Origin: Chiloscyllium plagiosum
Lineage: Eukaryota
NCBI RefSeq assembly: GCF_004010195.1
Contig: NC_057749.1
Coordinates: forward strand, 11,820,839-11,884,838
DNA: 64,000 nt
Direction: 5' to 3'
Shown here: positions 23,991 through 62,300 of the stretch, one piece after another
Numbering within the stretch: position 1 is the first letter of the stretch
Layout: each line of letters opens with the position of its first letter
Translations under genes and position numbers: made by a program
Notes under the pieces: model-generated
What the model was told of the DNA's origin: nothing
The model's database searches: none
Seen by the model: the letters and a program-made list of their open reading frames with translations, nothing else

Positions 23991-24419
23991 CCATAAGACC
24001 ATAAGACATAGGAGCGGAAGTAAGGTCATTCGGCCCATTGAGTCCACTCCGCCATTCAATCATGGCTGATGGGCATTTCAACTCCACTTACCCGCATTCT
24101 CCCCGTAGCCCTTAATTCCTTTTGAACTCTACCATTTGACCTCTACTATTCTTACAGATAACTGAGATCTCTTTATAAATTTGTTCTCGATATCCCACTC
24201 GACTACTGCAGGGTCTATAGTACAATCCCAAAAAGATGATCATCCATTTTTTTTTCTTTCAAAGTTCCACCAAATAACTTAATGGACATATTTCCCAGAA
24301 TATCCTCCAAGTACAGCCATAATGTTATCCCTAACCAAAGATGCCACTCCTCTTACTTTCTTGCCACCCCCCCGCCCTTTCCATTGTTCCTAGTGCATCT
24401 ATAGCCAAGAATATAGAGC

Positions 24420-25978: not shown

Positions 25979-28900
25979 TTCCTAATGTTACTGATGACTA
26001 CAGGAAGAATTTCAATCTCCTAGACCCAACAAGAAGAACATATCACTCTACCAAAGGCCATTTCTGCATCTTAGCATCTACAGGCCCAGAAAGTAGCTCT
26101 GTTTTACTGCTCTAAAAACCCTGCTCTAGGGTAACTTAGTGCTTATGTTTTATATTTTACAAAAATATAATCAAGAGACAGATCTTAGGAAAACATATTT
26201 TAAAAGCCCTCACCTTACACCCTATTGTAGATTTACAAACAACAATTAAAACTTAGGTTTTATAAAATTTAAAACCTATGTCCAGAAATGCTTGTAATTT
26301 TATAGCCAGTGAGTGAGTGAAAGTTCACTGTTCATTTTTTTCTGAACCCTACAGCAGTTCTTTAACCAAATTCTCATGGCGTCTCCTGTTCTCTTTTCTC
26401 CCATTTAAAGTACCATTGAAAATAAAAATCAAAACAAAGTTCCAAAAACAAAGCAACAGCTTATAAAACAATAATTACTACTCCAAGAAAGAGGAAATCA
26501 GCTCCAGCACTGAAATAAACCTCAAACAAAAAAGATCTTACAGCCACGATCGTTTCCCGTTCACCATTTTGCAAAGTTCACAGTGGTGAGAGAGACACAC
26601 GCACAGTGACGACGGAGAGAAGGAGGTGCACAGTGATGTGGGAGAAGACATAGAAGAACAGAGTGACCAGAGAACTCTCTCATTCCCCGTCTGCACTGAG
26701 GAGATGCAAAGGTCAGGATTAAGTTATTTGGAGTGGTGGGTGATGACAGAAGATTGTTCCCAAGGAGGATGGCTCTATGAACAATATCTGCTGGCATGAA
26801 GGCTAGGAATGACCCTTATCAAACTCACAAACAGTAAAACTTGTGATTATGAGAAAAAGAAACTATTTCTCCCTGCCCTAATCAAGCTGTCTGCAAACTT
26901 TCCCTTAGCATGCTCCACATTTAGCCAGTTGGATGGGACTGTTCTCACCTGCTTCCGTTCTTAAGTAATTGTAGCTGAAGAATCCTCTGCACCATCTTGG
27001 GTGCCATGTTCTCTTCCGAGTTCTCATCTGCTTTCTTGAACTGCTGCAGTCCACCTGCTGTTGCTTGACCCACAATAGCATTAGAGAGGGAATTCGGCCC
27101 AGCAACAGTGGTGGAACAGCAATATATTTCCAGGTCAGAGTTGTCAGTGGTTTGGAGGGAAACTTGAAGGTAGTCACATTCCTATGTATCTGCTGAACAT
27201 ATCCTTCTCAATGGAAATGGTCATGGGTTTGGAAGGTGCCGTCTTTGATGATTTTCTGCAGTGAGCCTTTGTAGATTGTACAAACTGCTGTTCCCGAGTG
27301 TCAGTGGTGGAGGGAGTGGATGCTTGTGGACGTAGTACAAATCAAGCAGGTTGTTTTGTCCTGGTTGGTGTCAAGCTTCTGGAGAGTTGTTGGAGCTGCA
27401 CCCATCCAGGCAAATAGATAGTATTCAATCACACTCCTGACTTGTAGATGATGGATAGGCTTTGATGGGGGTGGGGTTCAGGAGGTGAGTTACTCGCTGC
27501 AGTATTCCTTGGCTCTGACCTGCTCTTGTAGCCACTGTGTTCATTTGGCAATTCCAGTTGAGTTGCTAGTCAATGGTGACTCCCAGGATTCAGTGATGGT
27601 AACACCATTGTATGCCAAGAGGTGGTGGTTAGATTGTCTCTTGTGGGTGATGATCATAGTCTGGCATTTGTGTGGCGCAATTGTTATTTGTCACTTGTCA
27701 GCCCAAGCCTGGGATATTGTGCAGACTTTGTTGCATTTGAACATGGACTACTTCAGTAACTGAGGAGTTATGAATGACACTGAACATTGTGCAATCATCG
27801 GCAAACATCCTCACTTCTGATCTTATGATGGCAGGAAGACCAGGCCAACCAACGACACCCACATCCCACAAATGAGTAAAATAAAAGTACCCACTTCTCA
27901 AAAAACATTAAGTTAAAAAATTACATGCCAATGTTGCCCTTGAAATTTCAGTATTCCAATACATTCAGCTTCCCACAATATATCCTTATGTTGAAAATCA
28001 TCCAAAATAGAGCTGCTTGTGACCCACCCCAATCTAAGTCTAATTCACCCATCAATTTACTGACCTGCAATGGCTTTTGGTTCAACCCAGAATTAAAATT
28101 CTCATCCTCATTGTCAAATGAACCTGGGACATTCTAACACCTTAAAGGCACGACCTAAATGCAAAGTTATTACTTTTGAACAGAAAATTCTAGAGAAACG
28201 CAGCAGATCTGAAAGGGTTTGTGAGATGAGAAACAGAGTTAACATTCTTCCAAAGTCATAATGAATGAGAAATGTTGATGTGGTTTCTATCTCCATAAAC
28301 ATGGTCAGATCTGCTGTGTTTCTTCAGCACTTTCTGTTTTAATTCAGATCTCCAGCATCTATAATATTCCATTTTTGTTATTATTATTTTTGAAGTTGGG
28401 ATGGCCTCCAGTTTTGTGGTATTATAATCAAAACAGCAAGGGGTGGGTTTCACAGTACAAGAAGAAATCAGGGAGGCTATGAGGAAAGATATTTCAGAAA
28501 TTAGAGAATGATATGGGTTCAGGCTCAAAATGGAGAAACTACCAAATGAGACAGTACAAATGAATATCATTTGGTCAAGAAAGAATGATCTCAATCTCAA
28601 TCACCGAATGTAACTTTATCATTCCGTAGATAAGGAGACCAAAACAGCACAAAGGATCTGTACAACAAGGCTTCCTTACTGTTGTACTTCAAATCTCATG
28701 TAATAAAAGACAGCATGCTTTTTGATTTCCTAATTGCTTGCTACACCTGCAGGCTAACCTCTTGTCTTCATCATATAAGCACAATCGGGTACCTCAGGAC
28801 ATCAACATTTACTTACTTAATGCATTTTTAAGAAATATGCCATTATTCTATTCTATAATAGAATTATAGAATACCTACAGTGTGGAAAGAAGCCATTCAG

Positions 28901-30128: not shown

Positions 30129-30296
30129 GGAGAAAATGAGGACTGCGGATGCTGGAGATCAGAGTCGAAAGTGTGGTGCTGGCCCTTCATCAAGAAATCC
30201 TGATGAAAAGCTTATACAGTCCTCGAAACGTCGATTCTCCTGCTCCTTCGATACTGCCTGAGCGTCTGTGCTTTTCCAGCACCACACTCTCGACTC
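30129..30296. mobile_element. Short palindromic PLE derivative
   Basis: Inverted arms; TSD-like TGCATAATAATAATG / TGTATAATATTAATG. Confidence 0.75.
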
Positions 30297-37212: not shown

Positions 37213-40200
37213 GTNNNNNNNNNNNNNNNNNNNNNNNNNNNNNNNNNNNNNNNNNNNNNNNNNNNNNNNNNNNNNNNNNNNNNNNNNNNNNNNNNNNNNN
37301 NNNNNNNNNNNNNNNNNNNNNNNNNNNNNNNNNNNNNNNNNNNNNNNNNNNNNNNNNNNNNNNNNNNNNNNNNNNNNNNNNNNNNNNNNNNNNNNNNNNN
37401 NNNNNNNNNNNNNNNNNNNNNNNNNNNNNNNNNNNNNNNNNNNNNNNNNNNNNNNNNNNNNNNNNNNNNNNNNNNNNNNNNNNNNNNNNNNNNNNNNNNN
37501 NNNNNNNNNNNNNNNNNNNNNNNNNNNNNNNNNNNNNNNNNNNNNNNNNNNNNNNNNNNNNNNNNNNNNNNNNNNNNNNNNNNNNNNNNNNNNNNNNNNN
37601 NNNNNNNNNNNNNNNNNNNNNNNNNNNNNNNNNNNNNNNNNNNNNNNNNNNNNNNNNNNNNNNNNNNNNNNNNNNNNNNNNNNNNNNNNNNNNNNNNNNN
37701 NNNNNNNNNNNNNNAAAATGAGTTTACAAAACAAGATGAGACGACAAAGGGCAATGATGGAAAACAGGGAGAGTTAAAAAAACAGATGATAAAGAGAAAA
37801 GACTTCGAAAAAGGTTCAGAAACTGAAAATCTTAGTGATGAAGACTCTGAACTTAACTTTGATATTGATGAAGTTGAGAAAAAGACTAAAGTCCAGGGAA
37901 AGAGCTCGAGTTTTACTGGCAGCTCTGAAATAGATGATAAATTTTTTAGACTTGCAGAAATGGAAAATTTTTTAGAGAAATTTGAGAAGGAAGAAGAGAT
38001 GCAGAAAGATGATGATGAAATTCATTATTTTGAAGATATTCCCTCTGAAGATGAAGAACTTGTCCCCAAAATAAAGACTAAAAGAAAGGTAACAACATTA
38101 CCACAGTGTTCTGCCTCACTGCATGATGACCCTGAATCCTGTTCCATGACAGAGAGAAGCCCCACCCCTAACAGCACTGACCTCTGCTCTCTAACCCCTG
38201 CTCCGTAACAGCACTGATACTAGCTACCTGAACCCCCCTTGTCGATATCCCTGACCTCTGCTCCTTAACAGACCTGGCCTCCCCCTGCTCCTCAACAGCA
38301 AGGTAAATGCTGAGGATGTTTCCCCTTATAGGAGGGTCTAGGACCAAACGGCATAGTCTCAGAATAATGAAGCGCCAATTTAAGACTGAGAGAAAGAGAA
38401 ATTTCTTCTGGGGGTTGAGAGTTTTTGGAAGTTGCAATAGAGAACTGTGGGAGCAGAGTTCTTTTGTATATTTAAGACTGAGGTAGATTGAGTCCCCTCC
38501 TGACCAAGAATCTTAAGATTATGGGGAAATGCAGGAAAATTGATGAGTGTCAGATCAACCATGATCCCATTGAATGGTAGAGCAGGCTCAAGGGTCTGAG
38601 CTGTCTACTCCTGTTCCTATTCCTTATGAAAGGAAACCTCGCAACGTTTACCCTGTCAAACCCACTAAGGTTCTAATACACCTCAAAGAGATTGGAATTC
38701 GCAAGAATGACATTCAGAGTAGAAGTCCAAACCTGTTCAACGTTTGTTCATACAACAATCCCTCTGTACTAAGGACTGTCCTATTGAGCCTTCTCTGAAC
38801 TGCCTCCAATGAAATGATGCCTTTCCTAAAATAGGGAGACCAAAATTGATCTAAGTACTTTAGATGTGGTCTCATCAGCACCCTGCATAGTTGCAGTAAA
38901 ACTTTCCAACTCCTTTGGAATAAGGGCCAATGTTCCAATAGCCTTCCTGATTTACCTTTCATGAAGGTCCTCACATCTGGCTCCCTCTCTGTCTCTACAT
39001 CTGTCTCCTTCACTCTGACTCCCTCTCCCACCCTGTCTCACGCGCTATCTGTGCTGAGTGCTGCACATTGTGGACAGTCATGTTGTAAGATGAAACCAGA
39101 GTCAAATTTTTACAGATTTTTGTTGTTTGAAGAGTTCCAGAAACCTACAGTACAAGGATTTCTTTGACCCAGTTGAGGATGAGAAACCCATGGTGAAAGA
39201 CAACGATGAGGAGAAAGAAAGTGTTGAGGCAGAAGATGAACCAGATGCAGAAGAATTTGAGCCGGAGGAAGAAACGGATGAGTATGTTTTCTGAGGTTGA
39301 TTACCTTAACCTATAAGCCTAAAAAGCTATATCGCACTGGGTTCAGGTCTCCAATTGTTGACTCTAAACTCCCACTCCAACCTCAACCTCTGATAGTTCA
39401 AATGACTGGCAGAAACAGCGCTTTTTGGCCAATAGTTTGGTGTGCCACAGATGGAATATAAAACCTCTCAACAGGACCATCTCTCATCCTCTTCATTACC
39501 TAGGAATATAAACGTAATTTATCTGTTTCCAATGTTCCATATGATCCAGGTGACTATTGCCAGAGTTTGTTTCATCTGCCATTTCATTATTGTCTACGAT
39601 TAACGCCCAATTTGTAGAGGACCAACACTCAGTTTACTTTTTTTTCCTTTTTAAATATCTAGAAATTCTCACCATTTTTATATTTCTAACTAGCTTTCAT
39701 ACTCAAATTCCTTCCTCCTGATTAACCTTCTAGTCATTCTGTACCATTCTTTATATTCTGATGAATCATCTGACCTGTCACTTATCATTGCACAGGTATT
39801 TTTGTTTTCCTTGAGTTTCATGCTTTCTCTAAGTTACCAACAGATGGGGAGACATCCCTTAATTTTTTTTAGTAGTAGGAATATACTTATTCTGAGTATT
39901 CAGCAATAACCCCTTAAATAGACTGTCTCTCTATTGATCTATCCATTGAAAGTAGACATATTCTTTTTACAAACTAAAGTGTATTTATTAATTAATATTG
40001 CATTAATGTGGGTTCCTTTCTGTGATCCAGAAACCAGGAGGAGATGGCTGAGTCGGAGTGTGCCCAAGAGGCCAAAGGGGCAAATCAGAAAGTTCGCTTT
40101 AACCTGCCAGATGACAGTGATGGGAAAGAATTAGCCAGTGTGACAGGAGGAAACAAACCAGAAGAGACAAAGTCAACCTTTGAGAAGCGGCAAGAAAAGG

Positions 40201-46200: not shown

Positions 46201-49200
46201 ATCAGGTATTGATGGGTAAGCATCATGTGCCATGTGTTACAGGCTTGGGATGATGTTGTACGTAAGGAAAAACCAAAAGAAGAGGCCTTTGAATATAAAA
46301 AGAGACTCACCTTGGACCATGAGAAAAGCAAACTGAGCCTGGCTGAAGTTTATGAGCAGGAATATTTAAAGCAAACTCAGGTAATAATCTTGGATAACCT
46401 TTGGGGTTAATTGAATTTGAAGAGGAGTTCAGTTTTTAATATCTATGTTAGACACCGGAAAACTTGAAACAGGATACAGTACCTGGTTCAGTGTTGATGT
46501 CAAGCATTATTAACACTCTGGCAACAGTCACTCAGGAGAAACAGTGGCATTGCAGTTAATATCATTAGACAAATAATAACAGATCCAGACTGATAACCTG
46601 GAGACATAGGTTCAGATCTCACAATGGAAACTTGTGAAATTCACATTAATTAGTTTGAGGTATAAAGATAGTCTCGGTTATGGTGACCAAGACAACTGTC
46701 ATGAGTGGTTATAAAATCCCATCTGGTTCACTAATGTCATTTGGGGAAGGAAATCTGCCATACTTATCTGGCTGGCCGACAAGTGACCCCAGAAACACAG
46801 CAATGTGTTTGACTCTTAACTGCTTCTAAAATAGTCAGGAACCTGCTCAGTTCAAGGACAATGAGAGATGGGCAACAACCATTCCAACTGATACCCACAT
46901 CCTATGAAAGAATGAAGAAAAAAGAGCTTTCTGATTGGTCTCACCACACCTAAATGTTCATGTGTGTAACAGACAGAAATGATTCCAATGAGACTGTCCC
47001 CAAAAAAGTCAGCACCTTTAGGTATTGATCTCCCCCCGTGAGAGTGAACACCATCAGGACCTGCTGTCCCGGTGCAAGTGAGGACATTGTGAGTAAACTG
47101 AGATCACAGGCTAGGCCATTTTGGTGTGAGAGATTACATAGCTGGGATTACATATGTGACAGACTTTTAATTAAACTCTTGCAATCGCAGCAAATATCTG
47201 AAGTGGAGGAAAATGTGCAGCATGCTGAGATCCAGAGGTTGATGGATTCCCTTTTCCTTAAACTGGATGCACTTTCAAACTTCCATTTCACACCCAAACC
47301 GGTGAGTAAAAGAAACGCAAAATTAGAGTCAAGCATGGTCTGCATGACTGTACCACTATGTGTATGGCCTCTGTCTACTCTCAGACTATACTAGCACCCA
47401 CTGGATAGTCATTTCCTCTGATGCATTGTTTGATATATGATATTCACTATACTGGAACTGCTGGCTGCTGGAACAATCAGATCAGCTGCATTTCTGTACC
47501 ATGTTGATTTAACTGATTCCAACAAGGTGAAACCAAAGGTGAACCGCAATGTGCTTCAGTCCCCATTACCTGCTCTGACCTCTGCTGGAATACAGGGTTG
47601 GAAATCCCTCATGTAAGGTTCACCCAGTAAGAATGATCACTGGATGTGGGTGACCATGCAAGCAATTTTGAGATCTATAGCATACTAATTTCAGGTCTTC
47701 AGGAGAGAAAACTCTCAAACAAAACTATTAAAATAATAAGCACACACTCCCTCAGTGCTGGCGTAGAATTGAAAGTTTTGGATTCAGACACCAAAAGATA
47801 AATGTCTACAATTCAACCACTGACTTTTTCTTTGATATTTAAATCTTGTGATTTGTGTAATTGACTACACTTGCTATCTAGGTGCAGTCTATTTGTGATC
47901 CTGTCACGTTTATCCTCGGGGCAGGTTTACATCACCCCATAGCACTCTGACTGGGATTTGTGAGGTGCAAAAATCAGTATCTGCCACATCCAGAGGAAAA
48001 GTCATGCTGCGAGCAGCTCTCACTCACTAATCATTGAACTGAATCACCTTGGCTGTCAATTGGGGAGGAAGAACAAAATGTTTAAACTGTGCCAGCTTTT
48101 AACAAAGTTTTTTTTTTCTTTTGCCAGCCCATGCCTGAAGTGAAGGTGGTCTCTAACCTGCCTTCTATTTGTTTGGAGGAGGTGGCACCAGTGAATGTTA
48201 GTGATGCCACTCTGCTAGCACCAGAAGAAATCAAGGTAAGAGGTAAAAGAGGGAGATAGGATAAATCCCAACAGTTCTAAGGCTCTCCCTGGAATGGCAC
48301 TGAGCCCCACTTTGCCCAATCCATTTTAACTGATAACCGTTAGGAAAGGGTTGCAACATCAGCCTCTTTGCTTATGATTTTAAAGGTGAACTCAAGCTTG
48401 GACTTCTACTGTTGGCCATATTGGTGATACCATGGATAAGAACGGGATCATGATCATGCTGACTACAAAGCTACTCGTAGTTCAGATTCAACACATTTGA
48501 CTGGCTATGCTGAAGCATCAGTGAGGCTGAAAGAGAGTGTGATGACAGGAGGCTGAAGAGTTTTGCAAGAACATTGGTTTATTTTTTTGCTGTCTGGCCT
48601 GATAATTGCAGGAGAAGGGTCGAGCTGGGGAGATCCAGGGAGCCACAGAAAAGACAGCAACGGACAAGAAACGAGAGAGAAGGAAGAAGAAGAAACTGAA
48701 GCGTCTCCGACTGAAGGAGAAGGAAGCACGTCAGAAAGTGGTGGAGAAGTTGAATGTGAAGCTGAGTAATAAACAAGTAAAGGAAAAGAATGCTGAAAAA
48801 TTGAGAAAATTGACCTGGGAAGGAAAGGCAACACTGCTGAAGGTGAGCACTGTTATGGGTTGATTAATGTCTGGCGTAGGCAGCGGTGTGATGAGACTGT
48901 TTAATGTGTGTCTCACTGAATGGGAAATGGAGAGATTAAGTTAATTTGACCACGTTTTATGTCCTTTCAATGGTTGCTTCCTCTGGCATATAATTACCAT
49001 AAATTCCATTATTCCTATTCACAGCAAATGTTTCCTTTACAGAATGTTCAGACCAGTTTCCTTCCATGTACTGCATCGAAATTTCAAACACTCTTCCCAT
49101 TAGAATAAAAGCAAAATACTGTGGATGCTGTAACTTTGAAATAAATTCAGGAAAAAGTTATTCTAATTTGAAAAATTAACTCCAGTTAACTCCGTTTTAC

Positions 49201-51421
49201 TCCACAGATTCTGCCAAACCTTTTGAGTTCCTTCAGCATTCTCTTAATTCATGTCATTCAATTTGTATCCATTCACGCTCAAAATCTCTGTACAGCAGTT
49301 TCAGAGAAGCACTTAGAGTCATAGAGATGTACAGCATGGAAACTGACCCTTCGGTCCAACCCGTCCATGACGACCAGATATCCCAACCCAATCTAGTCCC
49401 ACCTGTCAGCACCCGGCCCATATCCCTTCTGACAGAAAATACACAGCAGTTCTGTCACCATCTGAGAGAAAAGATAGTTTAATTTTATGATTGAGTCATT
49501 GTATAGAGCAAGCCGCAAGGCTGCAGTTGAAGAACAAAGCAGTTTCTGCCCAGTTTGTTGAAGAACAAAGGTTTCCAGCATCTGCAGTCATTGTTTTTAC
49601 CTCATTGTATAGAGGCCATCTGAATGGCAAGGAGAAAGTGAGGTCTGCAGATGCTGGAGATCAAAGTTGAAACTTTATTGCTGGAACAGCACAGCAGGTC
49701 AGGCAGCATCCAGGGAACAGGAGATTCGACGTTTCGGGCACAGGCCCTTCTTCAGGAATGAGCAGAGAGTGTTCAGCAGGAGAAGATAAAAGGTAGGGAG
49801 GAGGGACTTGGAGGAGGGGAGTTGGAAATGTGATAGGTGGAAAGAGGTCAAGGTGAGGGTGATAGGTCGGAGTAGGACGGAGGCGGAGAGGTCAAGAAGA
49901 AGACTGCAGAAGACTGCAAGAAATCTAGGGAACAGAAGATTCGACGTTTCGGGCACATGCCCTTCTTCAGGAATGAGCAGAGAGTGTTCAGCAGGAGAAG
50001 ATAAAAGGTAGGGAGGAGGGACTTGGAGGAGGGGAGTTGGAAGTGGAGGAGATGCGGTGGAGGGCACCGTCGACCACGTCGCCTTCCTGACCTGCAGTCT
50101 TCTTGTTGACCTCTCCGCCTCCATCCTACTCCGACCTATCACCCTCACCTTGACCTCTTTCCACCTATCACATTTCCAACGCCCCTCCTCCAAGTCCCTC
50201 CTCCCTACCTTTTATCTTCTCCTGCTGAACACTCTCTGCTCATTCCTGAAGAAGGGCCTGTGCCCGAAACGTCGAATCTCCTGTTCCCTGGATGCTGCCT
50301 GACCTGCTGTGCTGTTCCAGCAATAAAGTTTCAACATCTGAATGGCAAGCCTATCCTTTTTGACTTGTGTGTTTCCAACATTCTCTCTCATGCTTGGTTC
50401 AATTCAATTATATCATATCTCTTTGTAGTACCTCTAAGTTTTGTATATATCTTATCACTTCAAAGTCTGTGAGAAGATTTGTACCTCGGGTGCTCGTTGT
50501 TGTGGTTCTGTTCGCCGAGCTGGGGTTGCAGATGTTTCGTCCCCTGTCTAGGTGACATCCTCAGTGCTTAGGAGCCTCCTGTGAAGCGCCTCTGTGATCT
50601 TTCCTCCGGCATTTGTAGTGGTTTGAATCTGCCGCTTGCGGTTGTCAGTTCCAGCTGTCCGCTGCAGTGGCCGGTATATTGAGTCCAGGTCAATGTGCAT
50701 ATTGATTGAATCTGTGGATGAGTGCCATGCCTCTAGGAATTCTGAACAGCCAGGGAATTCCTAGAGGCATGGCACTCATCCACAGATTCAATCAATAAGC
50801 ACATCAATCTGGACCCAATATACCGGCCACTGCAACGGACAGTTGGAACTGACAACCGGAAGCGACAAATTCAAACCACTACAAATGCCGGAGGAAAGAT
50901 CACAGAAGCGCTTCACAGGAGGCTCCTAAGCACTGAGGATGTCACCTAGACAGGGGACGAAACATCTGCAACACAAATTTCCAGCTCGGCGAACAGAACC
51001 ATAACATATCTTCTCACTTAATGATCATTTACCATGTTATCTACTTTAGTAAAGTCTCTCCTTTTGATACTGCCTGAAACATCAGTACCCCAAAAAGAGC
51101 CCCCAGTTTATTGCAGTAGATTTTATATGCAGCACTGTGGAGAATTTTGTAATCTTCTTGCCTTTGATTTCCCATATAATTCACTATATTGCAGGGGTGG
51201 TGTCAGAAAGCTAAAATTTCTATTATAAAAGTGAATTTCTACCTAATTTTTTGTTTTTAACCATTTAAAAGGATGAAGGGAAAGACAAAACTCTACGCTC
51301 GTCAAAGGCCTTTTTCTCCCAGTTACAAGATCAAGTAAAAGCTGATCTGAGAGGAGCCAAGATGAAAGCCAACAAGCAAAACAAACAAAGAGCTCTATCG
51401 ACAAGCAAGCTGAAACTTTAA
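37145..51421 (+). CDS. MPHOSPH10: U3 snoRNP protein MPP10 (whole gene span, 11 visible coding exons; 5' part of exon 2 lost in assembly gap)
   Basis: From exon 2 onward the exons join in frame with GT-AG sites: 37145-37212, <37715-38088, 39133-39281, 40031-40199, 42652-42793, 43130-43197, 46243-46380, 47191-47301, 48128-48235, 48612-48842, 51272-51421. Diagnostic peptides: [73 protein letters not shown]-terminal SKLKL*. Confidence 0.96.
37215..37714. other. Assembly gap (500 N)
   Basis: Run of N. Confidence 1.
37715..38088 (+). CDS. MPHOSPH10: MPHOSPH10 exon 2 (3' part; 5' end in gap)
   Basis: Open acidic frame NEFTKQ...[12 protein letters not shown]...[15 protein letters not shown]...KRK, donor AAG|GTAACA. 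Confidence 0.92.
39133..39281 (+). CDS. MPHOSPH10: MPHOSPH10 exon 3
   Basis: [16 protein letters not shown]...; acceptor ttgtttgaag, donor GA|GTATGT. Confidence 0.9.
40031..40199 (+). CDS. MPHOSPH10: MPHOSPH10 exon 4
   Basis: ...KVRFNLPDD...[10 protein letters not shown]; phase matches exon 3. Confidence 0.9.
40380..42010 (-). mobile_element. CR1 LINE ORF2 fragment (MPHOSPH10 intron 4)
   Basis: [40 protein letters not shown]. Confidence 0.9.
42652..42793 (+). CDS. MPHOSPH10: MPHOSPH10 exon 5
   Basis: [47 protein letters not shown]; donor GTAAGC. Confidence 0.95.
43130..43197 (+). CDS. MPHOSPH10: MPHOSPH10 exon 6
   Basis: [23 protein letters not shown]. Confidence 0.95.
46243..46380 (+). 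CDS. MPHOSPH10: MPHOSPH10 exon 7
   Basis: [46 protein letters not shown]. Confidence 0.95.
47191..47301 (+). CDS. MPHOSPH10: MPHOSPH10 exon 8
   Basis: [37 protein letters not shown]; donor GTGAGT. Confidence 0.93.
48128..48235 (+). CDS. MPHOSPH10: MPHOSPH10 exon 9
   Basis: [36 protein letters not shown]. Confidence 0.95.
48612..48842 (+). CDS. MPHOSPH10: MPHOSPH10 exon 10
   Basis: [27 protein letters not shown]...GKATLLK. Confidence 0.95.
49724..49759 (-). ncRNA. Minimal hammerhead ribozyme motif
   Basis: Exact reverse complement of 50242-50277. Confidence 0.8.
49939..49974 (-). ncRNA. Minimal hammerhead ribozyme motif
   Basis: Tandem second copy on the - strand, core intact. Confidence 0.75.
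50242..50277 (+). ncRNA. Minimal type I hammerhead ribozyme motif
   Basis: ATTC-CTGAAGA-A-GGGC-CTGT-GCCC-GAAAC-GTC-GAAT: stem I ATTC/GAAT, intact core, stem II GGGC/GCCC, predicted cleavage after C50273. Confidence 0.8.
50461..51005. mobile_element. Second palindromic PLE 3'-end element in MPHOSPH10 intron 10
   Basis: Inverted arms meet near 50745; TSD ATATCTT(A/C)TCACTT at 50447-50460 and 51006-51019. Confidence 0.88.
51272..51421 (+). CDS. MPHOSPH10: MPHOSPH10 exon 11 (terminal)
   Basis: [23 protein letters not shown]...SKLKL, TAA at 51419-51421. Confidence 0.95.
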   Translation, partial: DEGKDKTLRSSKAFFSQLQDQVKADLRGAKMKANKQNKQRALSTSKLKL

Positions 51422-51665: not shown

Positions 51666-52103
51666 ATGGCTCAGTGGTTAGCACTGCTGCCTCACAGCAC
51701 CAGACACCTAGGTTCAATTCTGGCCTCGGGCAACTGTCTGTGTGGAGTTTGCACATTCTCCCTGCGTCTGTGTGGGTTTCCTCTGGGTGCTCCGGTTTTC
51801 TCTCACAGTCCAAAGATGTGCAGGTCAGGTGAATTGGCCTTGCTAAATTGCCCACAGTGTTAGGTGCATTAGTCAGAGGGAAATGGATCTGGGTGGGTTA
51901 CTTTTTGAAGAAGGGCTTATGCCCGAAACGTCGATTCTCCTGTTCCCTGGATGCTGCCTGACCTGCTGCGCTTTTCCAGCAACAAATTTCCAGCTCTGAT
52001 CTCCAGCATCTGCAGACCTCACTTTCTCCTTACTTTTTGAAGGGTCAGTGTGGACTTGTTGGGCTGAAGGGCCTGTTTCCACCCTGTAGGGAATCTAATC
52101 TAG
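51666..52103 (+). mobile_element. tRNA-derived SINE with a nested PLE-end insertion (51911-52029)
   Basis: SINE head and tail flank an insert bounded by the 13-bp direct repeat TTACTTTTTGAAG (51898-51910, 52030-52042). Confidence 0.85.
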
Positions 52104-52699: not shown

Positions 52700-52881
52700 T
52701 CAATGCAAATGTTTATTGGGCTGTTTCTGATTTGGTTTTAATGCTGGGTCACCAGAGAAATGCCATTAGGCTCCTGCACCTTGACCATGGGCCAATTCTT
52801 GAAATCTGATTGGTTGGCGCAGCGAAGATCCGGGACCAGGCTGTGATTGGTCGCCCCGCTGGAGGTGGGACCTCCGCCGTC
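52700..52881 (+). promoter_or_regulatory. Putative FAN1 proximal promoter with CCAAT boxes
   Basis: ATTGG/CCAAT at 52715, 52792, 52809 and 52846, plus a GC-box-like cgccccgc near 52852, just upstream of the CpG-rich first exon. Confidence 0.6.
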
Positions 52882-53341
52882 ATGTTGTCCCCGGTCCCGA
52901 AGAGGCCGTGCTCCCGCCTTTCTCTCCGAGCTCGGGGCGGCCTCAACCCCCCGGCCCCGGCCCCGGCCCCGGCCCCGATCCCGACAGCGCCAGAAACACG
53001 GACTGGTGCCTGCGGCGCTGACCGCAGAAGCGGCCGCCTTCCATGCAGACTCTCGAGGCGGCATCGGAGAGCGGCCCCGGCCCCGGCCCCTGACCCCGGG
53101 GAGGGAGCGGCCCCGGCCCCTGACCCTGCCCCCGCCCCCGGGGAGGGAGCGGCCACGGCCCCGGCCCCTGACCCTGCCCCCGACCCCGGGGAGGGAGCGG
53201 GTCCGGGGAAGGGCAGGCCTCCGGTCCCTTACTACCTGAGCAATTTCCTGCTGGTGATGGAAGCGGTTCTGGGGAGTGAAGATAAAGAGCTTTTCAATGA
53301 AGACGATAATTACTGGCTGGGAACATTCCAGAAACTCTCAG
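52882..53341 (+). CDS. FAN1: FAN1 coding exon 1
   Basis: gccgtcATG; [15 protein letters not shown]..., Pro/Ala repeats, [15 protein letters not shown]...FQKLS; donor G|GTGATT. Confidence 0.85.
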
Positions 53342-56300
53342 GTGATTAGACAGAGGCACTGAGCTGGCAGTAAATTGTGGCCAAGTCCATTCGAGCAGCT
53401 TCCGCTGGTCTCAGGAGAGCAGAGCACTGACTGATCCAGACCAGGTGGAGTGGTCAGGTCTCCCAAGGCTCAATGTGTTGTATGAATAGAACTAGAGCCT
53501 GTCTCTGACTCAGGAGTCATCGTGGGGGTGGTGGAACCTACTTCACCTAGAATTCTTTGAGATTTGACAGGAAGCACACTTGCTGCTTTTTTTTTGTGGA
53601 GAACAATCAACAACAACATCCCTTCGTACCACTCCAGAGCCAAAGGATCTTGGTTGTTGTGTTATTGGAATCATAATTCAAATGTCTTGAGCAGGGAGGG
53701 GAAGATGTTCTTGGTGATAGGGTCTAGTTGGATTTGGCAGAAGTGTTTAAGGATGGTGCATTGGATGCAGAGACTGTTGCAGTGGTAGGTGAGGATGAGG
53801 GAGACTGTCTTTATTGCATTGGGCGGGGCTTAGAGCAATGGAACGGGGAAATGTAGATGGTGCAATGGAGGGCTGTCTGGATGACAGATGGAGGCGAAGC
53901 ACATTACGCAAAATAGGTAGACGTGGGATGCTGGCGAGTGGACTGCCTCTTCATCAGAGCAGATGCAGTAGGGGCAGAGGAATTGGGAGAATGGGGTGGA
54001 GTTCTTGTAGGATACTGGGAAGGAGGTGTACTCCAGGCAGTTATGTGAGGATGTGGGCTTGTAGTAAATGTCCATCTGGAGGCTGTCACCAGAGATGGAA
54101 ATTGGAGGAACAACCCCTGCTACTTGGGCAGTCTACAGCCTGGAGGACTCAACATTCACTTCTCCAATTTCAAATAACCTCCCTTCCCACCCCCTCCCCA
54201 ACTCTTCCACAACTCCCTGCCACCAATTGGATTCATTCCTCCTATTGACCAAGCAGATTATACCCTCTACCTGTCTTCACCTATCCCCACTTCACCACTA
54301 TGCCACTGCCACCCCTTTTATCTGCAGCTCCTCCCACACCCACCCCTCAGGCTTACACCCAAAATGTCAACTTTTCCACCTCCTGATGCTGCCTGGCTTG
54401 CTGTGTATTTCTAGCCTTCTGCCTGTCTCTCCTTATTTGGTCTGGCCTAAGTGGGGAGAAACATTTAAAAGGGATCTAAGGGTCAACCTTTTCACACAGA
54501 GGGTGGTGGATATATGAAATGAGCTGTCAGAGGAAGTGGTGGAGGCTGGTACAATTACAACATTTAAAAGGCATCTGGATGTGTATATGAATAGGAAGGG
54601 TTTCAAAGGGTATGGGCCAAATGTTGGCAAATGGGACTAGATTAATTTAGGTTATCTGGTTGGCATGGACGAGTTGCACTGAAAGGTCTGTTTCTGTGCT
54701 GTACATCTCTATGACTCTAAATGTGCCTCTGGACGCATGGCAATGTGGTTGACCCTTAAGTTTGGGCAATAAATGCTGGCCTAGCCAGTGATGTCCTCCT
54801 ACATGAAAGTAACAAAAAAGTAAAAACCGGCAGCTGACATAAAAGAATGTCCTTAACTCATATTACTGTTTACTTGCTCTACTTACTGAGTGCTTCATTT
54901 TATCCACAGTTACTGGCCAAAAGCTCTATGTGCGACTCTTTCAACGGAAGCTGAATTGGTTGAAAGTGACTAAACTGAATTATCCTGATATTGGTATGGA
55001 TCTGACCCCCACCATTGAGGAACTGAGCCTTGCAGGCTTGTTACTGACAGGTATGGGCTCCCAAAGGGAGGGTAGATTTTAATCAGTAAATTGAAGATAG
55101 CTGTGTTACTGAATATAGAATCCTTTTCCATCTCCATGACTCCAGCATGCGGAGACCCTCACCCATTCATGTGGCCACCATCTTAGACTTTCTGGGACTT
55201 TCTACCCTGCACCTGACAAACTTTCTCAAAACTCAACCTTTGGTAAATTTCTTCCATTCACTCAGTGTCTGCAGCAAAAGTGTGGTGCTGGAAAAGCACA
55301 GCAGGTCAGGTAGCATCCAAGGGAACAGGAGAATTGGCATTTTGGGCATACGCCCTTCATCAGGAAAGGGCCTGCTTCTTTATTTGATCTGTTACTAACC
55401 TTTGCCACTCTCCAGTAAAATCTTACGGCCTTTTGCTGTTCTTCAGATGCTGTGCCATATATATCTGAAACCAATGGTGTCACTGCAGTAAACATTCAAT
55501 TTGGGCTAGGCTCAGGGTCCTGGGGGAGGCAGCAACTGTCCCTTATTTATATTGTTTATCCCCCATTCCCCAGGCATTCCTGGCCCATACTATTCTGGGT
55601 CCCAGTGTGTTATACACTGACAATGATCTTTTCACCTTCCCAGAGTCAGATTTATGCAATGTCTCAGAGGCCCTGAACCTGCTATCTGCTCCTGAACTCA
55701 AACTAATGGCGAGAAGCTTCCACCTGCGATCCCAGGGTCAGAGGGCAGAAATATTGGAGTCTCTGCTACATTTGGCCAAGCAACAATCAATCTTCAGCTG
55801 CAGTCAGAAGCCATCAAGTCCTGGCCTCGCCATTCTCAACAGGTCTTTCAAAAGACACCATTTAACTTTGTACCAGCTGCATGTTAGAGCAGAGTGGAGC
55901 CCATGCCCCAGTGAGGGGGGAGGGGGCAAGCAAAAGCAATAGGATGGGGGTGTCTCTGCTCCAGGGAGGGATAAAGCAATGGGGAAGTGAATCGGGTCCA
56001 GGAGGTTGAGGGATTTGGGTTGTAGAGGAGGGCAAAGGCAAAGTTTCTAATTGTGGGAGGTTTTTGGACTGGGACAGTGTGCAGACTCTTGACGGGTAGC
56101 AGTTGGGGAGGAGCTACATGATAACTGATGGTAATGTCAATGCTGTGGGGCCTGTGTGCTTTCTTTGCTCTTTAAGGTCAGTACATTCAATGAAAAGTAG
56201 AATAAGCACTAAGGAACGAAAGTATGAGCTGATAAAAGTTGAAGAAAGCTGAGACAAGGTTGATGTGGAGCATAAACAGAGACCAGTTAGCTGAAATGAC

Positions 56301-59300
56301 TTTGTACAGGACATTGGTGAGGCCACTTTTAGCATACTACACTCTGGTCTCTCTGCTCAAGGAAAGATGTTGTTAAACTTGAAAGGTTTCAGAAAAGATT
56401 TGCAAGGATGTTCCTGAGATTAGAGAGTTTGAGCTATAGGGAGAAGCTGAATAGGCTGAGGGTAGTGTGTATGGAATGAGCTGCCAGAGGAAATGGTGGA
56501 GGTGGGTACAATTACAATATTAAAAGGCATCTGGATGGGTATATAAATAGGAATGGTTTAAGGGATATGGGCCAAATGCTGGCAAATTGGACTAGATCAG
56601 TTTAGGATATCTGGTTGGTGCGAACAAGTTGGATCGAAGGCTCTTTTTCCATACTGTAGAACTCTATGACTGTGTACTTAAAATTTAAATCCTGCCTAAC
56701 TCAATGGCTTTTGTTTAACAACGATGTGTGTTGTCAGGGTGAAGAAGATGGTCGGAAATTGTGTGAAAATTGCTGCTCCAGCCCGTGCTGTGTTCTCACG
56801 GCTATTACTACTTTTCAATCTGACGGACTGCACAGATGAAGAGGAAGCTTCCTGTGCTGGCCAGAATCAGCTGTCCACTGTGCTCATGGTCAACATGGGT
56901 CATGTCACCTTCCCTAGTTACACTGTGCTGAGGGAGAAGAAAATATTCCAGCACAGAGATGACCTGCTCAGGTGATGCCACATCTTGATCCACTCTAACT
57001 GCAGCATCCATACAGTTAATGGCAAACCCACCCAAGCTAGGAATTGCTTCTATGTCTAGCCAGATCAATTATAGGCGGAATAAGTAGAGGGGTTGGACAT
57101 GTAGTTGAGTGGATGGGTGTTAGGGTGTGCAAAGCTCCCCGTGACGGTTGCACAGCATTATGCTGATTGTGATTTTGACTTCCAATGTAGAATTACTACT
57201 CTATATTCTATTCAAACACTTTTCTGACTGGCACAGTCAGTTTACTCCATCATAGACTCCATGTCCAAAGGTGTATCATCTGCTCCCTAATAGGTGTGTT
57301 GACTGTCTTTGATAGATATAATGAAGCCGTGCATTCTCTGGCCGAGGTAATCACCGCGATGACCAGTGGGTTTTGGAGTGATGCTCTCCAGATTTGTAAA
57401 ACCGCCAAGGAGAAATGGAGCCAGCTGGAGAACAACAGTGACATCAGGTAATGAGCAGGAGTGCACAGTGTGGGGACTATCTCCTGGCCAGCAGTTTCAT
57501 GGGAACAACACATTCTTTCTTGTTAGTACTGCACCCCCCCCAAATCTCTAATTCAGCAAATATCCCTAGAGTATTTCACAAGGACAACAGAGAGAGCATA
57601 ATGTAAGAAACAGAAGAAGTGAAGAGAAAGTGTGACATAAGAATTACCAAATATCAAGTGAAAACAGCAATCCGAGGAAAGGCTGGAGTTTGAAGTGTGA
57701 GGGTATATGTTTCGTGAGACAGTATGGCAAGTTGCCAAGCTAGAGTTGGGTTGAGGTCATTGTTAGTACAGATTTTGAATTCAGTATGGTGTGTAGATGG
57801 CTGAATGTAGTGCAAAATCATTAGCAAGCAGTACAAGTTTGGATAACTCGCATCACACAGTTCTAGGACAGGTATAGCATAGGGTTAGATACAGAATAAA
57901 ACTTATTCTAGTCTTTTAAACTAAAAGTAAAGCTGTCTCTACATTGACCTCATCGATTACTTCCAGAACAGGGATAGCATAGGCTTACACATAGAGCACT
58001 CTCATTAAAGTAAAAATGCCTTTACTCTTTTAAACTGAAAGTAAATCTCCCTCTACATTGACTCCATGAAACACTCCCAGGCAGGGACAACATGGGGTTA
58101 GATGTAGAGTAATGCTCCTTCTACTCCTTTTAACTGAAATTAAAGCAGTCAGCAATGTCACCATAAAACACTCCAGGACAGGGACAGCATAAAGCTCGGT
58201 ACAGAGTTAAGATCCATCTAATCTTTCAAAAAAGAAAGTAAAGCTCTCTGTCCTTTACACTGCCCCATCAAACACTCCCAGGACCAAGACAGTACATATT
58301 AGGTACAGAGTACAGCTCACTCTACACTGTCATGTTAATATTCATACTTCCTGCCCCAGTATATATTTTTATTCTCCTTACTGTACCTGTCTGTGAATCT
58401 GGATCCTGCAGTGAATGAGTCGACTGACCAAAGTCTGCAATAGCAAACTGCGATGTTTGAAACCCGAACCACAAAGAAAAATCCAGAACCTTGGTGTTTT
58501 AGTCAAACTGAATGTTCAGGTGTTTACTTGGTAAGCGTTTCTTTTTCATCTTACAGTAAGTGACAAATGTTCCTTAATTTTAGGTTTCACCAGCAGCTCC
58601 CAGTGTATCTGCGACGTTTCACTGCAGGCTGGGTCTACACACGGATCAAAACCTATGGGGTTGAAATTTTACAACGACTGCACATGTATGAGGTAAAGAA
58701 ATGTAGAAGTTTGATAAGACCATAGTAATTCAATAAGACCATAGTAATTTCCTGAAGAAGGGCTAATGCCCGAAACGTCGATTCTCCTGTTCCCTAGATG
58801 CTGCCTGACCTGCTGCGCTTTTCCAGCAACACATTTCCATCTCTGATCTCCAGCATCTGCAGACCTCATTTTCTCTTCATAGTAATTCAATGCCAAGAAC
58901 ATCAATCTAGCTGCTCCCCAACCCAAGCTGTTCCAGTATTGTTACAACACTGGCATGTACCCAACAATGTTGGAAAGTTGTCCAAGCATATACTGTACAT
59001 AAAAAGCAGGACAAATCCAACCCAGCTAATTACTGCCCAATCAGTCTACTCTGGATCATCAGGAGGATGATGGAAAATGTCATCAAGAGTGCTAACAAGT
59101 AGCACCTTTCAGCATGGCGGGGTAGTGGACAGCCAAGAAGGCTACCTCAGTGTACAACGGGATTTGAGCAGATGGGCCGAGGAGTGGCAGATGGAGTTTA
59201 ATTTAGATAAATCTGAGGTGCTACATTTTGATAGGGCAGGCATGGTACCATACATCAAGAACATCTCTGAACTGACAGCCAGACTACTGCGACCACTAGG

Positions 59301-62300
59301 ACTTATAACAGCACACAAACCAACAGCCACGCTCGGACAACAACTCACCAAAACGAAGGACCCGATACCCAGCATGAGCAAAACTAATGTAGTGTACAAA
59401 ATCCCATGCAAGGACTGCACAAAACACTATATAGGACAAACAGGAAGACAGCTAGCGATCCGCATCCACAAACATCAACTAGCCACAAAACGACACGACC
59501 AGCTATCCCTAGTAGCCACACACGCAGACGACAAGCAACATGAATTTGACTGGGACAACACTACCATTATAGGGCAAGCGAAACAAAGAACAGCCAGGGA
59601 ATTCCTAGAAGCTTGGCACTCATCCACAAACTCCATCAACAAACACATCGACCTGGACCCAATATACCGGCCACTACAGCGGACAGCTGAAACTAACAAC
59701 CGGAAGCGGCAGGGACAGGCCACTATAAACACCGGAGGAAACACCACAGAAGCGCTTCACAGGAGGCTCCCAAGCACTGAGGATGTCACCTAGACAGGGG
59801 ACGAAACGTTTGCAACAAAAACTTCCAGCTCGGCGAACAGAACCACAGCAAAATCATGAGGGGCATAGATAGAGTGAATAGCCAAGGTCTTTTCCACAGG
59901 GTAGCAGAGTCCCAAAGTAGAGGAAATGGGTTTAAGTTGTGTGGGGAAAGATTTAAAAGGAACCTTAAGCAACTTTTTTATGCAGAGGGTGGTGCGTGTA
60001 TGGAATGAGCTGCCAGAGGAAGTGGTGAAGGCTAATACAATTAGAACATTTAGAAGCATCAGGATGGATATATGAATAGGAAAGGTTTAGATGGAAATGG
60101 GCCAAATGCTGGCAAATGGGACTAGATTAATCTGTAGGGATTCTAAGATTAGGATATCTGTTCGGCATGGACGAGTTGGACTGAAGGGTCTGTTTCCATG
60201 CTGTACATCTCTGATTCTATAAGCTGCTCCGTGACATCAGTATGGGTTCCATCTGGGCCACTCAGCCTTTGTTCAAATATGGACAAAAGAGCTGAGTTCT
60301 AGAGGTGAGACTGCGAGCCCTTGATGTCAGGGCTGCATTCCATCATCCACAACACACAAGTCAGGAATGTGATGGAATACTTCGTAGCACGTGATGAGTG
60401 CAGCTCTAACAACATTCAAGAACCTTGACACCATCCAGGACAAAGCAGCCGCTTGATTGGCACTACATCCACAAACATTCACTCCCTCCACCACTGACGC
60501 TCAATAGCAGCAGTGTGTACTATCTACAAGATGCACTGCAGAAATTCACGAAAGATCCTCAGACAGACTCCAAACCTGTAATCACTTTCATCTATATAAT
60601 AGACAATAGGTGCAGGAGTAGGCCATTCAGCCCTTCGAACCTGCACCGCCTTTCAATATGATCATGGATGATCATTCCTAATCAGTATCCTGTTCCTGCC
60701 TTATCTCCATAACCCTTGATTCCACTATCTTTAAGAGCTCTATCCAACTCTTTCTTAAATGAATCCAGAGACTGGGCCTCTACTTCCCTCTGGGGCAGAG
60801 CATTCCACACAGCCACCACTCTCTGGGTGAAGAAGTTTCTCCTCATCTCTGTAGGGCATCTAGAAGAACAAAGCAGTAGATACATAGGAGTGTACTCAAT
60901 GGGCCAAATGGCCTTACTTCCACTCCTATGTCTTATGGTCTTATAGGAATACCATCACCTACAAGTTCCTCTCCAAGCCAGTCACCACCCTGACTTGGAA
61001 ATATGTCACTGTCCTTTCACGGTCGCTGGGTCAGAATCTTGGATTTCTCTCCCCAATGGCATTATGGGTCGACTCACAGCAGGTGGATTGCAGCAGTTCA
61101 AAGGGGCAACCAGGGGTGGACAATAAATGCTGGCTGGCCAGCAATGCCCACATCCCACAAATCATTTTTTATTTTTAAAATTAACTGCAAGGCCTAGGTA
61201 TCTTATGTGGGCCTTCAGAATTGGAAACAGTGGCATTGGTTGGTTTAGTTTAACTTAATTAATCTAATATAGTGATTGAAGCTGCTGATACCATTATGTT
61301 TTGAATCCTGTTCTCAGGAAGCAGTGGAGGAACTGCAAAATCTTTTGGAACAAAGCATCTATTGTCCAAGCAGCCGTGGCTACTGGTGGAATCGACTGAG
61401 TCTGAATCTCCATCAGCATCTGAAGCAGACTGATCAAGTAATTGAGATTGCTTTAAAGTTATGATGTTTGATATCTTTGCCAACTACTTGTATACATGAG
61501 CATGTTGCTATGACCGGACAGACCCTAGTTCTAATTGCTGTATGACAAGATATCCATCTTATCTTTCACACAGTGGTGGGAATTGAACCCAATGCTCCAA
61601 TTCTGGTGTGCTTTACTACATAATAAAGTTTTGATAACTAACTAGGGTCGGTAACCTGGTTGAGAAATGTTGAAGTTTTAAATAGGCAGTGAAAGTTGAT
61701 TTGTACTCAGCTGACTAATGATCTCCTCAGATTATTCTGTTACAATGGTTTCTTCATATGATTTTGGCTTCCAGGCAATCCACTGTTTGCGGAAAGGATT
61801 GGATGATGTCTCAGTTCACATGGGCCATCGGCTGGCTTTATATCAGCGTGCAGTACGGATTCGTGACTCCCCAAGCTACAAGAAATGGCATCACCTTCTT
61901 CAGAATCTGCCAGTAGTGAGAGTACAGGATGTGCCACATGTGAGTGTCTCTAAGGAAGTCACAGCTCCAAGTTATTGACCCACTTTCTTTGTCTTCGTCT
62001 GACATAAATAGTTTGTTGAAATCATTTTATTGATTTGTGTTATTTCCATGAAATTGTGAGCAAAGGCCTGACTAGGTATTGGTGCAAAACCAATACAAAA
62101 TCTGACCCTCCATTGTAAGATGCAATAACAACTGCTGCTTCATTTCACAAGGAAACTAGATCTCCTTCCTCCCCCTAGCCTGGTAGAGGATTGGTCCCAG
62201 TTTGCTGAGCTCCACTCCTGAAATCACTGACACTAGCTGGATATCTGACCACAAATGCCAGTTACTTGGCCACCTGCCCCACGTAATTGTTTACAAGAAT

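Follow-up and report, generated by a model that had tools for sequence, protein, structure and literature searches.

A well-preserved asymmetric insertion, very probably of a Penelope-like retrotransposon, in the last coding intron of MPHOSPH10 of Chiloscyllium plagiosum

Complex insertions of endonuclease-positive (EN+) Penelope-like elements (PLEs) have been described for Penelope/Poseidon, Neptune and Nematis and, in Adineta vaga, for Pen2a and a Pen2 derivative (PMC3846280, PMC8557442). These insertions combine pseudo-LTRs (pLTRs) in partial tandem with an adjoining inverted, 5′-truncated pLTR placed head to head, a tail of 30-40 bp at one end and a target-site duplication (TSD), internal deletions of the microhomology type, and a minimal hammerhead motif in each pLTR; for the inverted structures, the published authors lean to self-priming or to endonuclease-mediated resolution. 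PAc, a Poseidon element from Anolis carolinensis, has a hammerhead in its pLTR and an RNA-internal tail with two fixed ends that equals the distance between two reverse transcription start sites, and its enzyme nicks and extends both target strands (PMC11167929). Non-LTR retrozymes (PMC7229834; bioRxiv 10.64898/2026.07.22.740005) carry paired type-I hammerheads of one orientation within sequence whose derivation from pLTRs has been proposed.

Here we describe a 703-bp insertion structure in a 64,000-nt stretch of the Chiloscyllium plagiosum genome (contig NC_057749.1), which we refer to as the window. All of the features listed above for EN+ PLEs recur in it, and the first-pass annotation overlooked that partial-tandem pLTRs, an inverted 5′-truncated copy and a tail of 30-40 bp are a published PLE signature. 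There is little doubt in our minds that the insertion is of PLE origin, and it is very probably a truncated, single, non-autonomous, dead-on-arrival insertion of an EN+ element. It departs from the EN+ examples in having lost almost the whole open reading frame (ORF), in two internal jumps that would have brought two hammerheads within 215 nt, and in its 15-bp TSD (14-15 bp across the six inverted insertions tabulated), compared with 8-10 bp in the rotifer examples. Whereas PAc is a Poseidon element, the family here, known from sequence alone, looks Neptune-like by a Cys/His linker motif recognized by eye in the long ORF of the window. The components are as follows.

48843..51271, + strand: last coding intron of MPHOSPH10, from flanking-exon matches and an in-frame GT-AG join
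49617..49631, no strand: left TSD, 15 bp, identical at 15/15 positions to 50335-50349
49632..49666, - strand: PLE-type tail, 34-35 nt, confined to one arm; same end in direct copies at 51906-52030, 58749-58875 and 4636-4751
49666..49909, - strand: downstream pLTR (tailed arm), 99% complementary to 50092-50335 and 72-92% like sister copies in the window
49724..49759, - strand: minimal type-I hammerhead motif B, core start 49755, predicted cut after 49728
49899..49922, - strand: junction between the two direct copies, where the sequence shows 4 additional nt and 10 nt duplicated in tandem (49899-49908 recurs as 49909-49918)
49923..50042, - strand: upstream partial pLTR (inner copy), ending 20 nt past its own predicted hammerhead cut; 123-nt repeat with period 215
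49939..49974, - strand: minimal type-I hammerhead motif A, core start 49970, predicted cut after 49943
50039..50081, - strand: putative PLE coding-sequence fragment from the region after the reverse transcriptase (RT) core, joined to the pLTR via a 4-nt microhomology
50080..50334, + strand: inverted, 5′-truncated, tailless pLTR, whose first 12 nt (50080-50091) have no mirror in the other arm
50242..50277, + strand: minimal type-I hammerhead motif C, core start 50246, predicted cut after 50273
50335..50349, no strand: right TSD, 15 bp; by a 1-nt microhomology, its first base could equally belong to the element

The host intron was correctly placed by the first-pass annotation: the exons on either side align with residues 555-632 and 632-681 of human MPP10, its C-terminal end, and can be joined in frame over the GT-AG intron 48843-51271, which makes it the last coding intron of a gene on the + strand. 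A contig of sequencing run X8 departs from the genomic stretch at 48843. In the host pre-mRNA, the element would form a 244-bp hairpin that is removed by splicing. Arms that had been described as ~250 bp and almost perfectly complementary measure 244 nt each (49666-49909 and 50092-50335), with 3 differences, and the extra internal partial copy reported between them is the 123-nt repeat at 49923-50045, which differs from both arms at 3 internal positions. The junction between the direct copies may have arisen through slippage or a template switch. The exact 15-bp TSD was likewise borne out, scoring 15 in a search that never exceeded 10 with 148 random position pairs, and the left-arm extension, put at ~35 nt, is 35 nt long, or 34 if the C common to TSD and element is assigned to the arm. 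"Young", as the insertion had been called, holds in a relative sense only. Dating by arm divergence was considered and rejected, as the arms possibly derive from different templates and as, with the shark rate of 7e-10 per base and generation, a divergence of 0.6% per arm already amounts to several million generations. Sequencing reads of 4 of 24 listed runs, compared over 47900-49945, showed neither an empty-site junction nor a cluster of molecule ends, in output dominated by other family copies; the one RNA run among them, a polyA single-cell library of which ~2% was read and which would hardly capture circles, had zero depth over the unique intron, and we draw nothing from these reads on cleavage, circles, editing or polymorphism.

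Two tandem - strand hammerhead motifs 215 nt apart (cores at 49970 and 49755) and one on the + strand (core at 50246) were recovered as predicted, and they account for 3 of the 9 matches obtained when the window was scanned on its two strands. Each has a 4-bp stem I, a 4-bp stem II and a palindromic ACGU in place of stem III, and each pLTR displays the minimal type-I features of an extra base before stem II, a G10.1-C11.1 pair and a palindromic 15.2-16.2. The claim of three intact hammerheads thus stands at the level of motifs; these are minimal forms that lack stem III, with a 4-bp stem I and without the helix III and loop 1-loop 2 contacts of a canonical type-I hammerhead, and Rfam returned no match over the whole window at its gathering score. 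Hammerheads of such a minimal kind are able to work only as dimers, as had been stated. The tandem pair is antisense to MPHOSPH10, and motif C, the sole one in the sense of the host pre-mRNA, is fully paired within the hairpin in the folded + strand. We infer that all three are passengers at this locus.

The coding fragment may link the insertion to a PLE ORF. Its 43 nt at 50039-50081 match the long PLE ORF of the window at ~25212-25254 in 31/43 positions, a score reached by 0/300 shuffles; it also narrowly leads all non-self matches over 127,912 six-frame positions (31 vs 28), for a fragment of only 14 codons whose DNA target was picked after the peptide had been seen. The long ORF, with putative RT and GIY-YIG regions, spans 24394-26020, and a copy at 19784-19943 ties its end to the pLTR family (89/101 nt). 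Atlas look-alikes of this ORF, taken as a lead only, carry HTH_animal, RVT_1 and GIY-YIG. Pfam matched 4 of 13 ORF pieces (Mpp10 twice, Fan1_SAP and RT_RNaseH_2) and 0 of the 8 PLE-like pieces, and a PDB sequence search with the long ORF gave no matches; the protein assignment therefore rests on the Atlas leads and on motifs identified by eye. The source family is probably Neptune-like: a candidate for the Neptune-type zinc-finger-like motif between RT and endonuclease (CHRRNC followed by IIYCICC...IG) was recognized on visual inspection of a sister ORF that is broken and lies outside the insertion. About 30 PLE end fragments are spread over the 64 kb of the window. Scans of metagenome contigs with the subfamily motif and with the tail motif each returned no matches.

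The one-sided tail recurs within the window. All six TSD-bounded inverted insertions that we tabulated carry a single extension of 32-43 nt and a TSD of 14-15 bp; the shared asymmetry claimed for 603-827, 17537-19516 and 30129-30296 corresponds to extensions of 38, 32 and 33 nt, and the 15-bp TSD of every one of these loci contains 1-2 mismatches. The extension is not bound to one side, being on the right at 6114-6359 (43 nt, degenerate). Single direct copies in the window, variably 5′-truncated, carry their own TSDs of 13-14 bp, and in the TSD search 10 of 11 candidate loci scored at least 9, the one at 4641-4751 having no convincing TSD. Counted from the hammerhead core, the tail has two fixed ends, one at +123 to +125 and the other at roughly +89 to +91, and at 19121-19250 it continues into further repeat sequence, from which it follows that the tail is internal to the element RNA. 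The TSD length of the inverted copies suggests a fixed nick spacing; we found no TSD lengths for shark-type PLEs in the literature searched, a search that lay outside most subscription papers and Repbase.

How were two arms of unequal length produced? On balance, we lean towards priming from two nicks. A GIY-YIG endonuclease of the element would nick both target strands 15 bp apart, as published PLE biochemistry leads one to expect; reverse transcription from the first nick would start at the end of the tail (~+124 from the hammerhead core), copy one pLTR, and then jump twice, at the slippage duplication 49899-49922 and at the microhomology 50039-50042. The second nick would prime at a second start site ~35 nt upstream (+89), yielding an inverted arm that has no tail, and head-to-head joining would unite the two cDNAs. 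The 215-nt hammerhead spacing would then be an accident of the template jump. Inversion in TSD-bounded L1 retro-insertions is attributed to twin priming from both nicks, and what is inverted in L1 is another stretch of that RNA, lying further 5′. In the present insertion, by contrast, both arms copy the same sequence, so that two pLTR templates would be needed. A doubtful but possible alternative, starting from the same PLE origin, is that the 3′ end of the first cDNA snapped back, copied itself, halted ~35 nt short because of a protein footprint or endonuclease resolution, and joined the second nick. Such a fold-back would suit arms that are 99% alike and of one subfamily, a variant common to both arms at 603-827, and palindromic centres at 603, 6114, 30129 and 50461; it would also accord with Arkhipova et al., who infer self-priming from junction palindromes, and with Craig et al., who suggest endonuclease-mediated resolution. 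Against it, the tail in vitro is the spacing of two RT starts (PMC11167929), and at 30129-30296 the tailed arm is without ~65 nt that are present in the tailless arm. At the present locus, there are two details that speak, weakly, for arms primed separately. The 12 nt at 50080-50091 are without a mirror in the tailed arm, and both direct copies have a T, at 49820 and 50035, where the inverted arm has a G. This G is the majority base of the family (29/33 and 10/23 reads in run X21; 64-86% of contig depth in runs X1, X8 and X14), in a comparison that covered 47900-49945 in 4 of 24 listed runs, with reads that mix many family copies at 92% likeness. The case against fold-back amounts to one base plus 12 nt, and mutation after insertion together with gene conversion, or a later deletion at the palindrome centre, might mimic both details. 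The earlier proposal of a stereotyped fold-back step holds for the asymmetry, a stereotyped product of integration at 6/6 loci; the fold-back itself is possible, with two sequence details on the side of separate priming.

The first-pass annotation also likened the tandem - strand pair to a retrozyme or circular-RNA intermediate, a reading that found no support. An antisense transcript would release and circularize a 215-nt RNA (49942-49728), or the insertion would have been copied from such a circle; we give this a very low probability. Both cores are intact, the modelled geometry would permit a nested double hammerhead, the spacing falls inside the 150-450-nt range of retrozymes, and derivation of retrozymes from PLE pLTRs has been proposed in print. 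In retrozymes, complete units that each contain a hammerhead follow one another in tandem at least twice, and the monomer RNA folds into a stable structure. Here the repeat spans just 123 of 215 nt, identity ends 20 nt past the first cut, and both sides pass into PLE sequence foreign to the unit, which rules out a 215-nt circle as the template. It also counts against a retrozyme that the pair is antisense to the host gene. The locus, known from DNA, is set apart from non-LTR retrozymes by its lack of a complete repeated monomer, its minimal instead of canonical hammerheads, and its unstructured, pyrimidine-rich unit (folding z = 0.00; 97/200 shuffles as good) beside an inverted copy that would sequester the pair. 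Forming the dimer fold is predicted to cost ~220 kcal/mol with the inverted arm and 17.0 without it, and 14.8 for the core alone, no better than with shuffled linkers (15.8 ± 2.5, n = 40); these energies ignore hammerhead tertiary contacts, and we rely only on the difference made by the inverted arm. The minimal hammerheads of PLEs are poor at cleavage, dimers included. Among nine frog dimers tested, one cleaved and eight did not, and cleavage is dispensable for PLE insertion in vitro (PMC11167929). A promoter inside the pLTR, as published for other PLEs, could yield a transcript without the inverted arm, and a retrozyme at birth can be imagined on this basis: two jumps in one PLE insertion would set the hammerheads 215 nt apart, transcription from the upstream pLTR would bypass the inverted arm, and a protein-assisted double hammerhead would excise a circularizing 215-nt RNA. 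We consider this, too, highly improbable, and production of the proposed circular RNA by this element is unlikely. That the palindrome is an assembly artefact is scarcely credible. Assemblies from short reads are known to have difficulty with tandem and inverted PLE structures, and the read comparison covered the left part, with the centre and right junction beyond it; against this stand an exact TSD on either side, variants that tell the three copies apart, the same asymmetric geometry at five other loci, and a contig of run X1, possibly the assembly's own source, that spans 49583-49652 with no differences at single-copy depth (8.2 vs 7.8) and reaches only 21 nt into the element, where the bridging rule is 31 nt. 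Equally implausible is descent from a DNA transposon, as a MITE or Foldback-type element ending in long inverted repeats, a reading to which the TSD and long inverted arms would conform. The repeats are offset by 35 nt and thus not terminal, retroelement coding sequence lies at the centre, and the same sequence occurs as single direct truncated copies with TSDs of their own; those at 51906-52029 and 58749-58877 largely refute this reading.

The architecture is a known one, to which this locus adds one well-preserved instance of the published PLE signature, and as a single locus it is of little importance, the architecture being already in print. Should a retrozyme at birth prove real in spite of its low probability, it would show directly how PLE ends yield animal retrozymes and would give a concrete route for their proposed PLE origin. 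For the two-nick priming that we prefer, the modest value of the insertion lies in its three distinguishable pLTR copies, which make fold-back and two-nick priming separable within one event, and it offers a clean natural record of the process by which inverted PLE copies come to bear a tail at one end.

The element at 49617-50349, in the last coding intron of MPHOSPH10, is an ordinary insertion of an already published Penelope-like element (PLE) kind, real and well described by the first-pass annotation, whose positions for the arms, inner copy, 15-bp target-site duplication (TSD), three ribozyme motifs and left-side extension all held. An exact 15-mer at 49617-49631 recurs at 50335-50349, with a TSD search score of 15 where 148 random position pairs reached 10 at most. 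The inner copy, 49923-50045, repeats 49708-49830 with a period of 215, and the left arm exceeds the mirror of the right arm by 35 nt (or 34, with a C common to arm and TSD assigned to the arm). Scanned on both strands, the whole window gave nine hammerhead motif matches, three of them inside the element; these are minimal type-I motifs in which stems I and II have 4 bp each, an extra base precedes stem II, and a palindromic ACGU replaces stem III. Rfam at its gathering score reported no match in the window. The element had also been called young, which stands as a statement of good preservation (3 differences over 244 positions between the arms, 49666-49909 and 50092-50335) and not of age. The host is probably a shark, to judge by its style of repeats; if so, and if the differences arose after insertion, 0.6% per arm would correspond to several million generations at the mutation rate of the epaulette shark (7e-10 per base and generation; PMC10587355).

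Parts of the element, reading from its centre (pseudo-LTR, the PLE end repeat; tail, the one-sided extension at the element end)
50081-50039, - strand: coding-sequence scrap, 43 nt, first part
After the scrap, - strand: partial pseudo-LTR, joined via 4-nt microhomology, ending 20 nt past its own hammerhead cut site
Between partial and full pseudo-LTR, - strand: junction with 4 extra bases and a 10-nt duplication
Last parts, - strand: full pseudo-LTR, then tail
About 50080 to 50334, + strand: inverted pseudo-LTR without tail
49970 and 49755, - strand: hammerhead cores, from the motif scan
50246, + strand: hammerhead core, from the motif scan

This architecture matches the PLE insertions described by Craig et al. 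(PMC8557442) as partial tandems whose 5′ end carries an inverted, 5′-truncated copy, with a tail of 30-40 bp on one end. Minimal hammerheads of this sort, including opposite-strand pairs 100-700 bp apart, are reported by Cervera and De la Pena (PMC4209133) and described there as poorly active even when dimeric. Against a long, disrupted ORF (24394-26020), picked as the target after the peptide was seen, the scrap is identical at 31 of 43 nt, a score that none of 300 shuffles reached; at the peptide level this ORF is, narrowly, its best non-self match among 127,912 positions. The ORF is a frameshifted PLE reading frame with RT- and GIY-YIG-like motifs and a Cys/His linker, without the hammerhead-bearing 3′ end; its Atlas look-alikes, which we treat as a lead, carry HTH_animal, RVT_1 and GIY-YIG. 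A copy at 19784-19943 connects the ORF end (89 of 101 nt) with the pseudo-LTR family. Because Pfam matched none of eight PLE-like ORF pieces and a PDB sequence search with the PLE ORF gave no match, we only tentatively call the family Neptune-like.

The asymmetry of the arms recurs across the window, as the first-pass annotation had noticed at 603-827, 17537-19516 and 30129-30296. Eleven candidate insertions were tabulated, ten of them with a TSD score of at least 9; of 148 random pairs, one scored as high.

Inverted insertions, with TSD length and one-sided extension
603-827: TSD 15 bp, extension 38 nt
6114-6359: TSD 15 bp, extension 43 nt, right side
17537-19516: TSD 15 bp, extension 32 nt
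30129-30296: TSD 15 bp, extension 33 nt
49617-50349 (the element): TSD 15 bp, extension 35 nt
50461-51005: TSD 14 bp, extension 38 nt

All six inverted insertions have TSDs of 14-15 bp, and all four direct or mini insertions have TSDs of 12-14 bp and retain the tail; this narrow range (12-15 bp) is longer than the 8-10 bp of published rotifer PLE examples. Since 50461-51005 belongs to a second PLE family, with GIY-YIG look-alikes for its longer copy at 59242-59790, the pattern is not restricted to one family. Counted from the hammerhead core, the tailed ends in the element's family lie between +123 and +125, the tailless ones at about +89 to +91. The tail continues into further repeat sequence at 19121-19250 and is therefore internal to the element RNA. 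By manual reading, the start lies at -5 to +1 of the core in about 9 of 29 hammerhead-region copies (733, 6209, 6224, 30194, 30201, 45815, 51905, 55363 and 58752), which suggests that the template ends, or reverse transcriptase stops, at the 5′ border of the folded ribozyme; one of the 29 starts near the cut site (+28), at an internal join. Among individual copies, 603-827 sits inside an LTR-retroelement RNase H-like piece (Pfam RT_RNaseH_2, 718-1083). The 2-kb insertion at 17537-19516 encloses the end of another family's GIY-YIG-like ORF (18119-18523), a (GA/GT)n tract and a second tail (19121-19158) that runs on into further repeat sequence, and is probably a set of nested insertions. The direct, tailed copy at 58721-58891 has, besides its 14-bp TSD, a short extra duplication of flanking target at the 5′ junction, as if synthesis had jumped to target DNA as its template.

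In the work of Frangieh et al. (PMC11167929) on a lizard PLE protein, both strands of the target were nicked and extended, reverse transcription began at two internal sites whose spacing equals the tail, and hammerhead cleavage was dispensable for insertion. We slightly favor a comparable origin, in which each arm was primed from its own nick: the target would be nicked on both strands with a 15-bp stagger, first-strand synthesis would start from the tail end and include two template jumps, the other nick would prime a second cDNA at the second start site, and the two cDNAs would be joined head to head. The main rival, proposed in the first-pass annotation as a stereotyped step at integration, is that the first cDNA folds back, so that the tailless arm should be a copy of the tailed one. 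The stereotypy holds, in that the asymmetry recurs in all six inverted insertions, but the fold-back itself now seems rather unlikely. The first 12 nt of the + strand arm (50080-50091) are unmirrored in the - strand arm and may or may not be family sequence; at one site the inverted arm has G and the two direct copies have T (49820, 50035); and the tailless arm of 30129-30296 has about 65 nt absent from its tailed arm. Reads of X21, a run of raw polyA single-cell RNA reads, show this G in 29 of 33 and 10 of 23 cases, and contigs of the other three runs show it at 64-86% of their depth. Later mutation, conversion or deletion could account for each of these points as well, and a variant common to both arms of 603-827 is compatible with fold-back and two-nick priming alike.

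The tandem - strand hammerheads had also been read as a retrozyme-like arrangement with a circular RNA intermediate of about 215 nt, and this interpretation is not supported. A rolling-circle template is expected to repeat the entire unit. In 20-nt bins, period-215 identity is 19-20/20 in five bins, 15/20 in one and 2-9/20 on either side, and the 215-nt unit lacks the sequence that follows the second hammerhead; the repeat is thus incomplete, and copying of the insertion from a 215-nt circle is ruled out. Because the host gene lies on the + strand, the tandem pair is antisense to its transcript, and an antisense transcript would be needed for the locus to make a circle. That it does so appears very improbable. 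The double-hammerhead fold is computed to cost about 220 kcal/mol with the inverted arm and 17.0 without it, a contrast that is the only meaningful one since the models leave out tertiary contacts; for the core alone the cost is 14.8 against 15.8 +/- 2.5 for shuffled linkers (n=40), and the 215-mer shows no excess stability over shuffles (z = 0.00). A promoter inside the PLE pseudo-LTR (PMC6765202) could yield a transcript without the inverted arm, which leaves the circle a small chance. Retrozymes proper are described as tandems of complete units, in the classical case with canonical hammerheads (PMC7229834; bioRxiv 10.64898/2026.07.22.740005), and the latter source reports self-cleavage in one of nine tested dimers.

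Reads from four of 24 listed runs were compared over 47900-49945, a stretch that takes in the left part of the element. One contig of run X1, possibly the assembly's source, spans the left junction at single-copy depth without differences and reaches only 21 nt into the element. Copies of the family are very numerous in all three contig runs, a second organism included.

The position in the last MPHOSPH10 intron is confirmed by flanking exons that match human MPP10 residues 555-632 and 632-681, the C-terminus, and join in frame across a GT-AG intron (48843-51271); upstream exons match Pfam Mpp10, and the preceding splice joint is present in runs X21 and X8. The first coding exons are separated by a 500-N assembly gap (37215-37714), and a GC-rich island and FAN1 exons (together 52800-55940; Pfam Fan1_SAP at 55469-55939) lie about 1.4 kb past the MPHOSPH10 stop, on the same strand. 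The same intron holds a very abundant repeat fragment at 49315-49430, with high depth in all four runs, and a 93-bp mini insertion at 49509-49601 (region 49496-49614), which terminates in the tail of a different PLE subfamily; its 13-bp TSD is exact, its 5′ part has a 14-nt direct repeat, and 2 bp separate it from the element's left TSD. It also holds the inverted insertion 50461-51005, of a different, Poseidon-like family, with 218-bp arms at 95% identity, each bearing a hammerhead motif, a 38-nt one-sided extension and one mismatch in its TSD. The sole hammerhead motif of the element in the host pre-mRNA is the + strand one, which is fully paired within the hairpin in the computed fold. With these two inverted insertions, the last MPHOSPH10 intron would contribute two long hairpins to the pre-mRNA, possible candidate substrates of ADAR or other dsRNA-binding proteins.
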